This document shows positions 10,893 through 11,545 of a stretch of DNA of 17,319 nt, in pieces. The stretch comes from a virus. A model generated the notes under the pieces. It saw only the letters and a list, made by a program, of their open reading frames with translations. It did no database searches and had not been told where the DNA came from. Numbering within the stretch: the stretch's first letter is position 1; every line of letters begins with the position of its first letter. The translations under genes and the position numbers were made by a program. Location: UHGV virus genome UHGV-1706157. The stretch is one strand, 5' to 3'.

Positions 10893-11545
10893 ACTTGCCG
10901 GGTACGTCTCCGGCGAGGGCTTCCACCTCCGTATGCTTTTCGGCGCACCGCGCCCTGGCTGCAATTCGGTAACAGGGGATGCACAACCCTGGCTTCCAGC
11001 GTGATTAGCGCCTTCAGCATGACGGGATATACCCGTAAATTCGTGGAACTGTACCCAAAGTGCTGTTAAGCACCGCTGTTACGCTGAAAAGAAAACGCAA
11101 CAGGAAAGGACGCTGACCAACAGATGGCCCCTTCTCGTTCATCTGGTTAATCACACCAGCGCCCTTACCTGTTGTGCCTCCCCGTTCCCTAATACACAGA
11201 CGGGGACACTCTGCGGTCGATTTTTTTGACGGGGGACGACTCATACCCCGTGGCATCTGGTTTCTTAGGCCGCTACCATCATCAGATCATCGTTTGCATT
11301 TACTTTAATGGTCAGTTTCTAAACCGCCGCAAAGTCGCTAACCATGACGAAAACCCTGAAAAAAACGCCCACCCGAAGATGGGCAAACTGGAAGCTCGTA
11401 ACGCACTTCGGCGTTGCCACTTAGGCGCATGGTCAACCTGGCAACTCGGTGGTTTGTCTGGGAGGACTAGGCCCAGCCATGCTTACCGCCGCGCCTGTCG
11501 CGGCTAACAGCTAAATCGCTCTATAAATCACGATTCATTGAGGCG

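Follow-up and report, generated by a model that had tools for sequence, protein, structure and literature searches.

What does a 16-nucleotide (nt) sequence do when it stands, unchanged, on both sides of a pair of transfer RNA (tRNA) genes in a phage genome? The question is raised by the viral genome UHGV-1706157, a stretch of 17,319 nt here called the window, in which CCCTTACCTGTTGTGC occurs exactly twice on the plus strand, at 10723-10738 and at 11162-11177, bracketing the genes for tRNA-Asn and tRNA-Thr. The window is phage P1 (100% identity to Punavirus P1 records and 99% to the P1 reference), and mapping the annotation of that reference onto it puts the 16-mer region between Pban with operator Op72 and tciA/ban, within the untranslated leader of the ban operon, whose transcription runs along the minus strand. 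The best overall explanation, to which we give a probability of roughly 0.55, is that the 16-mers are arms of paralogous hairpins, belonging to one family, whose stems would process and insulate the leader RNA and whose arms also serve as recombination joints.

Four hairpins in the ban leader

The repetition of the 16-mer is not due to chance, as dinucleotide shuffles contained on average 0.15 matches to it, and two or more matches in only 1 of 200. Ungapped searching at up to three mismatches returned no other copy in the window, and missed the variant that the preliminary description had placed at 10233-10248; this variant is real, differs by a 2-nt insertion or deletion, and was found as repeat family D2. 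The copy at 10723-10738 adjoins the CCA end of tRNA-Thr, starting directly after CCA on the minus strand, and the copy at 11162-11177, followed along the transcript, precedes tRNA-Asn by 270 nt. The inverted partners suggested for both copies were recovered by a repeat finder, which paired 10657-10669 with 10718-10730 (I8) and 11098-11115 with 11157-11174 (I2, with arms 89% complementary). Read along the transcribed strand, the 16-mer is GCACAACAGGTAAGGG, and at both sites this sequence provides the 5' arm of a hairpin. A fourth hairpin, overlooked in the preliminary description, is built on the 23-nt inverted repeat I1 (10415-10437 with 10492-10514, 91%), which is stronger than the others. 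These elements, designated HP-A to HP-D in the order of transcription, are as follows, with folding free energy as dG.

11162-11177, minus strand: 16-mer, 5' arm of HP-A (repeat finder, D5 and I2)
11096-11176, minus strand: HP-A, 81 nt; dG -45.6 kcal/mol, z -5.1
10723-10738, minus strand: 16-mer, 5' arm of HP-B (repeat finder, I8)
10651-10737, minus strand: HP-B, 87 nt, with a 21-bp outer stem; dG -47.5 kcal/mol, z -6.0
10415-10514, minus strand: HP-C, 100 nt, about 27 bp; dG -51.8 kcal/mol, z -5.7 (I1)
10157-10235, minus strand: HP-D, 79 nt, with a 19-bp outer stem and the variant at 10233-10248 as its 5' arm; dG -45.0 kcal/mol, z -5.3

Both 16-mers thus close long hairpins, as had been proposed, and none of 200 shuffles folds as well as any of the four, whose outer stems span 19-27 bp. 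Extra pairs can lengthen the stem of HP-A, which lies 203 nt upstream of tRNA-Asn, to 11183-11089. The arms of HP-C, CAACGTTGAGAACACTGG and CCAGTGTTCTCAACATTG, have diverged yet are still complementary to one another. Inside HP-B, a tRNA-like T-arm, GGGTTCGAATCCC (10686-10674), is stacked on an acceptor-like helix of 7-8 bp, and the interiors of HP-D (10187-10211) and HP-C (10466-10490) hold a 25-nt motif, GTAACGGGKTCATATCCCAATCTAC on the minus strand, that forms a T-loop-like mini-hairpin; 13 nt of this motif are missing from HP-D of the related phage Ro157c2YLVW. Window-wide local folding and a permissive stem finder proved too noisy, giving many hits of 18-25 "pairs" in coding regions, and were replaced by a search for the end motifs combined with a test of the outer stem by RNAfold. 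In this search HP-B had a dG of -40.3 and HP-D of -33.4, and a scan of the whole 17-kb window gave no hairpin copy beyond HP-A to HP-D.

The preliminary description had named the orthologous regions of related phages as the place where its proposal could fail. There the motif is kept, in P7, D6, RCS47, SJ46 and Ro157c2YLVW, and the same hairpins stand in the same places in these phages and in several P1-like plasmids. The interiors of the hairpins may differ wholly among these relatives, as with HP-B, which has 87 nt in P1 and D6 but in P7 and Ro157c2YLVW measures 68 nt and is unrelated in its interior. P7 and D6 possess an additional tRNA-Ser(UGA) whose CCA is followed directly by a hairpin of the HP-D type with yet another interior. 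This tRNA gene lies in the ban leader of D6 (L003 2138-2224; L numbers are our labels for individual sequences) and P7 (L004 1638-1724) and is not present in P1; the P7 record leaves it unannotated, and the D6 record places its three tRNAs on the strand opposite to that given by ARAGORN.

A stem probably selected as RNA in temperate phages

The hairpins of P1 are members of a widespread hairpin family of temperate enterobacterial phages, with at least 84 distinct versions. Same-kind hairpins are carried by five phage-plasmids of 101-113 kb that are not of the P1 type (Cyrano, CMS-2020a, and plasmids from Shigella, Cronobacter and Klebsiella), putatively SSU5/pHCM2-like by their IncFIB typing, gene content and size, where they begin 0-2 nt after tRNA-Thr, tRNA-Asn and tRNA-Ser in the tRNA arrays of these elements. 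The arms are always on the tRNA strand, both here and in the P1-type relatives. Scanning IMG/VR with the end-motif pattern gave at least 120 loci and at least 86 distinct hairpins, mostly on phage contigs of 27-48 kb and nearly all with outer stems of at least 16 bp. In its dominant form the element consists of CACAACAGGTAAGAGCATTG, 35-55 unrelated nt, and CAGTGCTCTTTCCGTTGTG.

Phage lambda has a member with consensus arms at 44787-44862, which touches no tRNA and begins six nt after the T-run of tR', in the late leader. The annotated lambda orf-64 (44621-44815; L257, lambda 44300-45400) runs across tR' and the start of this hairpin. The stretch of about 65 nt just past the lambda hairpin (CTGAATTAAGCGAATACCGGAAGCAGAACCGGATCACC...) recurs in P7 and D6, where it makes up the interior of their HP-D-type hairpin, a mosaic reuse of pieces. 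In complete Escherichia coli genomes, the 3' arm together with its commonest flank is found in 1115 of 5426, at 1345 places (969 on chromosomes and 376 on plasmids), with a median of one place per genome having any; no annotation underlies these E. coli places. Two chromosomal sites that were inspected lie between the Q antiterminator and holin genes and in an early operon upstream of yfdP, both on the gene strand.

A scan of one genome per species returned mostly chance matches, in addition to Enterobacterales. About ten matches in unrelated taxa were rejected as lambda DNA at 99.8-100% identity. They are short contigs (L144, L158, L160, L162, L169, L171, L178, L191, L195 and L206) corresponding to lambda 44300-45400 in assemblies of Psychrobacter, Algoriphagus, Leeuwenhoekiella, Neobacillus, Shewanella, Oceanobacillus and others, several with names that record a coverage of about 1-2, and are almost certainly lambda contamination of those assemblies.

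No Rfam family reaches its gathering score over the hairpins of the window (where only three tRNAs pass), of nine other loci, or of the lambda-type leader, and permissive Rfam scans over the window hairpins yielded only weak, chance-level matches to microRNA-precursor models. Neither ARAGORN nor the Rfam tRNA model detects a cloverleaf on HP-A to HP-D. Membership among the Y RNA-like RNAs was also considered and rejected, as the sole YrlA match sits over true tRNAs.

What the members share is a consensus stem of 19-20 bp, CACAAC-A-GGUAAGAGCAUUG paired with CAGUGCUCUUUCCGUUGUG, in which, in the main class, the sixth pair is followed by a bulged A and the ninth position is frequently a U.U mismatch. 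In the pair tables of minimum free energy folds, each of positions 1-19 is paired in no fewer than 90% of 86 hairpins, with the exception of position 9 (U.U in 46, U-A in 38); positions 13-19 take five or six standard pair types, and pairing declines past position 20. Covariation was counted formally in the bulged class only (alignment A2), as a MAFFT alignment of all arm classes (A1) put the bulged and unbulged classes out of register. Among the 30 distinct arm pairs so aligned, 94.7% of cells are paired and both partners have changed in 8 of 19 pairs (40 cells); not one of 500 shuffles attains any of the five measures, and sliding the partner arm by 1-3 columns lowers pairing to 35-62% of cells. 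With the sense strand defined solely by context, the transcribed-strand fold is the stabler in 73 of 84 hairpins (median difference -5.45 kcal/mol) and holds 233 G-U pairs versus 136 on the other strand. The stem is a conserved, covarying and strand-specific two-turn fold, probably under selection as RNA, and the apical interiors are unrelated between members and free to vary.

The neighbours of the hairpins are as characteristic as the stem. Twenty of the 84 distinct hairpins touch the 3' end of a tRNA, three overlap the first three nt of a tRNA, 15 start within 9 nt of a terminator T-run, and in 36 the last GUG of the hairpin is also the start of a module that comes next. The spacer between tRNAs or modules is filled exactly, the hairpin starting 0-2 nt after CCA or its last three nt being the first three of the next module. 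In sequence the module is GUGGUGAAUGCGCAGGCUGAUGCGC ... GCCGGAGUUCAGCACCGGCCACCACA, and its closing helix covaries, being GUGGUG/CACCAC in 22 cases, GUGAUG/CAUCAC in 5, and GCGGUG/CACCGC after HP-D of P1. The module looks tRNA-derived, because a few copies (L122, L132) retain D and T arms of tRNA type. Three lambdoid contigs from IMG/VR (L019, L068, L077) hold a tRNA-Arg(UCU) that starts with the last three nt (GUG) of the hairpin and has two G-U pairs in its acceptor stem (GUGGCAU with AUGCUGC), as if recombination at the hairpin arm had overwritten its 5' end.

The corresponding elements of the P1 leader are listed below.

11348-11449, minus strand: dicF-like region, with an intrinsic terminator at about 11385-11359 (P1 annotation mapped, and sequence)
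10817-10892, minus strand: tRNA-Asn (GTT), P1 gene trnA (ARAGORN; Rfam, 74.5 bits; P1 annotation)
10739-10814, minus strand: tRNA-Thr (TGT), P1 gene trnT, with its encoded CCA end at 10739 (ARAGORN; Rfam; P1 annotation)
10324-10420, minus strand: module after HP-C, GUGGUGAAUGCACAGGCUGAUGUGC...GUCGGAGUUCAGCACCGACCAUCACA, with closing helix GUGGUG/CAUCAC, a helix that covaries across loci
10040-10160, minus strand: module after HP-D, with closing helix UGCGGUG/CACCGCA and a partial match to STnc100

In the P1 reference the order on the minus strand is Pban with a pair of C1 operators, the dicF-like region, trnA, trnT, about 700 nt that carry the opposite-strand open reading frames (ORFs) plp and upl, tciABC, trnI and ban. 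The transcript of the window runs from Pban through the dicF-like RNA, with which the leader opens downstream of Pban and its C1 operators (about 11545-11575), to HP-A, tRNA-Asn, tRNA-Thr, HP-B, HP-C, HP-D, the downstream genes, tRNA-Ile/Met and ban. With modules after HP-C and HP-D and hairpins beside tRNAs, the leader of P1 is organized as an alternating array of hairpins and tRNAs or tRNA-derived modules. The first nucleotides of the HP-C module are common to the 3' arm of HP-C. The HP-D module matches STnc100 (RF02076) at 37.8 bits (E 3.4e-6), below the gathering score of 47; STnc100 is a prophage-encoded small RNA family (bioRxiv 10.64898/2026.05.13.724894). The same module is homologous to the dicF-dicB spacer of the Qin prophage of E. 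coli K-12 (GTGGTGAATGCGGCTGAGCGCACGCGGAACAGTTAAAACC; L259, about 1649440-1649520), so that what the ban leader of P1 has in common with the Qin dicB operon goes beyond a dicF-like piece. In Qin the downstream module is present after dicF, and the hairpin was not found there. Farther downstream the window diverges from the P1 reference (L001 1771-2467) beyond about 10040, and at 8962-10006 tciA-tciB-tciC are replaced by genes for a 78-aa membrane protein and a 275-aa SPFH-domain/lipoprotein, a replacement also seen in RCS47, Ro157c2YLVW and many P1-like plasmids.

Probable processing sites, recombination joints and rival readings

The preliminary description had taken the motif shared by the two sides of the tRNA pair as a processing or protein-binding signal rather than a coincidence. 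That proposal holds in so far as the motif is not due to chance, closes hairpins and is conserved in relatives, but the signal is not the 16-mer itself; it is the 19-20 bp RNA stem, with the 16-mer as one of its arms. The hairpins are most likely double-stranded RNA processing and insulator sites that separate tRNAs from messenger RNA (mRNA). The two-turn stem would act as a processing and insulating element, most probably as a substrate of host RNase III, cleavage would free the tRNAs from the polycistronic transcript, and the stems left at the new ends may protect the flanking RNAs. RNase III is the likely nuclease because it needs a helix of about 20 bp and cuts such spacers in polycistronic RNAs of phages and their hosts. 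The hairpins have two features of such sites, namely a double-stranded stem of about two turns (about 20 bp) on the transcribed strand, and a position in untranslated spacers between the functional units of one transcript. Two other roles were rejected: no U-tract follows the stems, as a terminator would require, and the small ORFs that start from GTG or ATG after each hairpin are not conserved in length or frame.

Precedents for such sites come from bacteria and phages alike. For the metY-nusA-infB transcript of E. coli, Regnier and Grunberg-Manago reportedly described, in 1989, a hairpin cut by RNase III. This hairpin was detected again in PMC5371410, according to which (with its reference 46) cutting by RNase III beside metY sets the tRNA free and initiates breakdown of the mRNA that follows. 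The metY hairpin is the closest precedent, being a long stem directly downstream of a tRNA in a polycistronic transcript; unlike it, the phage hairpins, to which it has no sequence relation, are present in multiple copies with conserved arms and variable interiors, and their cleavage is inferred. The lambda late-leader element is homologous to the P1 hairpins by its consensus arms. The title of Daniels et al. 1988 (Virology 167:568; reference 49 in PMC7547250) reports RNase III processing sites in the Q-dependent late RNA of lambda. The lambda hairpin at 44787-44862 may be the same as the site of that study. The RNase III sites in the early region of phage T7 are similar in being hairpins of about two turns, with internal distortion, between the units of a polycistronic RNA, and differ in having other sequences, in separating mRNAs rather than tRNAs, and in having no hypervariable apical domains. 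Cleavage at the T7 early sites leaves protective terminal stems.

Several observations weigh against this interpretation. For the P1 hairpins, both cleavage and the nuclease are inferred. HP-A, HP-C and HP-D touch no intact tRNA in the window. The global fold of the 598-nt lambda late leader does not form the hairpin, and it also shows a 20-bp tR' stem, which is another candidate for the lambda RNase III site. The test of strand asymmetry is not independent across members, one conserved G-U pair being part of the shared arm. A simple processing signal also does not explain why interiors of 35-60 nt, often structured, are replaced wholesale rather than shrunk, nor would a cleavage signal account for the 25-nt motif in the interiors of HP-C and HP-D, which is 96% identical (repeat D3) despite the differing arms.

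These last points bear on the question of whether the excised hairpins are themselves functional small RNAs, in which the variable apical domain is the active part (antisense, decoy, or a part in competition between phages) and the stem is only a handle, with release by tRNA-processing enzymes (RNase P and 3' trimming), by RNase III, or by both. We consider this unlikely, although it accommodates interiors that are long, often structured and swapped as whole units while the stems stay constant, as well as the near-identity of the 25-nt motif and the T-arm-like hairpins within some interiors. The hairpins also have exact limits, set at their two ends by the CCA of a tRNA and by a tRNA-like 5' end, and the module that adjoins one of them is related, by the sub-threshold match, to the prophage small RNA family STnc100. 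The TMERs (tRNA-microRNA-encoded RNAs) of murine gammaherpesvirus 68 provide a parallel, in that a viral tRNA or tRNA-like unit is directly followed by a long hairpin; the base of the TMER hairpin is set by tRNA 3' processing. TMERs differ in belonging to a eukaryotic virus, in being transcribed by RNA polymerase III, and in yielding Dicer-dependent products. What speaks against an active apical domain is that the family as a whole yielded no target, seed or conserved motif in the interiors, and that close relatives such as P1 and P7 have unrelated HP-B interiors (87 versus 68 nt) with no obvious consequence.

In addition to any role as RNA, the arms have left traces of recombination. The 98.9-kb P1-like contig L038 matches the window from 12601 to 11161 and then from 10662 to 9852, with roughly 500 nt between missing; when it is compared with P7, the two matching blocks overlap by 17 nt of shared arm. 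The one hairpin left in L038 is flanked upstream as HP-A is and downstream as HP-B is, and no tRNA is present there, both Asn and Thr having been lost. This deletion is the product that recombination between the two 16-mers would be expected to yield. RCS47, in turn, has 196 extra nt that amount to one more module plus hairpin unit, and identical interiors occur in up to six combinations of flanks. Because of the L038 deletion, the extra unit of RCS47 and the mixed combinations of interiors and flanks, the repeated arms are real recombination joints, whether or not this is a role for which they are selected. As near-identical short direct repeats they allow homologous recombination to add or remove units of a hairpin with its tRNA or module. 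In some phage-plasmids, P1-like and others (L002 2548-2634, L014 2431-2517, L008 and L010), a tRNA-Tyr(GUA) without a flanking hairpin lies between tRNA-Asn and tRNA-Thr, and therefore not all changes of tRNA content use the hairpin arms.

It could be argued from these exchanges that the element acts mainly as DNA, the arms being boundaries that help unrelated temperate phages to swap cassettes of tRNAs and small RNAs, either by homologous recombination or through a structure-specific recombinase that acts on a folded strand, as at integron attC sites. The precise natural deletion between the two 16/17-mers, the unit gained by RCS47 and the independent assortment of flanks and interiors all fit such a role, as does the presence of the same arms in P1-like phages, other phage-plasmids and lambdoids that are otherwise unrelated. 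The ends, ..AAC and GTT.., and the conserved bulged base are attC-like: GCACAAC and GTTGTGR deviate at one or two positions each from the attC sequences RYYYAAC and GTTRRRY, and a variable centre and bulged A are present. The attC sites are likewise imperfect palindromes of 50-140 nt at cassette boundaries, with conserved ends, a variable centre, unpaired bases, and gain and loss of cassettes. They differ in that the P1 arrays are without integron integrase, attI and Pc, that the units are tRNAs or small-RNA modules, and that the RNA fold is favoured. Mobile regulatory cassettes of T4-type phages, the PeSLs (promoter early stem-loops), were reportedly described by Arbiol et al. in 2010; there too variable genes lie between repeated stem-loops, at which recombination shuffles the modules, but PeSLs include an early promoter, flank protein genes and belong to lytic phages, and no promoter is evident in the P1 hairpins.

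A role primarily as DNA nonetheless strikes us as slightly less probable again than an active small RNA. Compensatory changes and the G-U bias of the transcribed strand indicate selection on a fold of RNA or single strands and not on duplex homology alone, and any repeat of 17-20 nt would be expected to recombine incidentally. The arrays have no recombinase in common, and in P1 and lambda-type contexts they adjoin no integrase; the annotated neighbours in P1, P7, D6 and two E. coli prophages include none beside the array, and only the phage-plasmids outside the P1 group have a tyrosine integrase, about 1.2-2 kb away. In Ro157c2YLVW, moreover, the tRNA-Tyr inserted between Asn and Thr has no hairpins at its borders. 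The two roles might also be combined in a dual cassette system, in which the stem as RNA would be the handle for host tRNA-processing enzymes and RNase III to release a stable small RNA with a phage-specific activity in its hypervariable apical domain, and as DNA would be the joint at which such cassettes and tRNA genes pass between phages that are otherwise unrelated (P1-like, other phage-plasmids, lambdoids). Such a system, which we hold to be more doubtful than either of its halves, would be a bacterial counterpart of viral tRNA-linked pre-microRNA hairpins together with attC-like cassette shuffling.

Selfish or decaying DNA, in the form of miniature inverted-repeat elements or the remains of tRNA genes in a tRNA array, is an improbable source of the hairpins. 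Terminal inverted repeats in many copies across phages would be explained, as would the resemblance of several interiors and 5' flanks to tRNA fragments (CCA-like flanks and T-arm motifs) and the gradation of downstream modules from tRNA-like (L122, L132) to degenerate. The inverted ends of MITE-like (miniature inverted-repeat transposable) or REP-like (repetitive extragenic palindromic) elements are present, but their flank duplication is absent: none of 138 sequences has a target-site duplication, and 5' and 3' flanks always differ. The orientation is always with transcription, the stem is held at 19-20 bp with compensatory changes, and ARAGORN and the Rfam tRNA model give no match on the hairpins; the median of one place per E. 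coli genome, the location of both inspected chromosomal sites in prophage operon leaders, and the 376 of 1345 places that are on plasmids point the same way. Least credible by far is an origin of the repeats in protein-coding paralogy of the plus-strand genes upl and plp over HP-B, HP-C and HP-D, which are annotated on the opposite strand in the P1 reference and correspond to 109- and 125-aa ORFs in the window, and it was rejected because HP-A lies outside both ORFs, the frames are unconserved (tblastn matches split across frames in P7, Ro157c2YLVW, RCS47, SJ46 and even the P1 reference), the change of HP-B from 87 nt in P1 to 68 nt in P7 shifts the plp frame, and the P7 and RefSeq plasmid records have no coding sequence there. 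On this comparison upl and plp (window 10061-10768, plus strand) are probably not genes.

What the hairpin family means for P1 and its relatives

Hairpin processing sites beside tRNAs and in phage leaders belong to a kind already known, and the copy in lambda may be one that was mapped in 1988. The P1 copies, a family-wide stem with a free interior that is missing from Rfam, and the role of the arms as joints in the gain and loss of tRNAs appear to be undescribed in the literature searched; a full-text search gave nothing relevant on the arm sequences, on P1 ban, dicF and tRNA, on P1 RNA sequencing, or on tRNA-like prophage RNAs.

For P1 itself, a 1.5-kb stretch to which two doubtful protein genes (upl and plp) had been assigned becomes the structured RNA module array of the ban leader, and recombination at the hairpin arms supplies a concrete mechanism for the differing tRNA gene content among P1-like phages. 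More broadly, Rfam lacks a very common family of RNA structures that is carried by lambda, by roughly one in five complete E. coli genomes, and by phage-plasmids of Klebsiella, Cronobacter and Shigella; the hypervariable interiors of its members are directly testable. If the assignment to RNase III is true, the release of tRNAs, the stability of mRNA and the expression of late and early operons would be linked across temperate phages.

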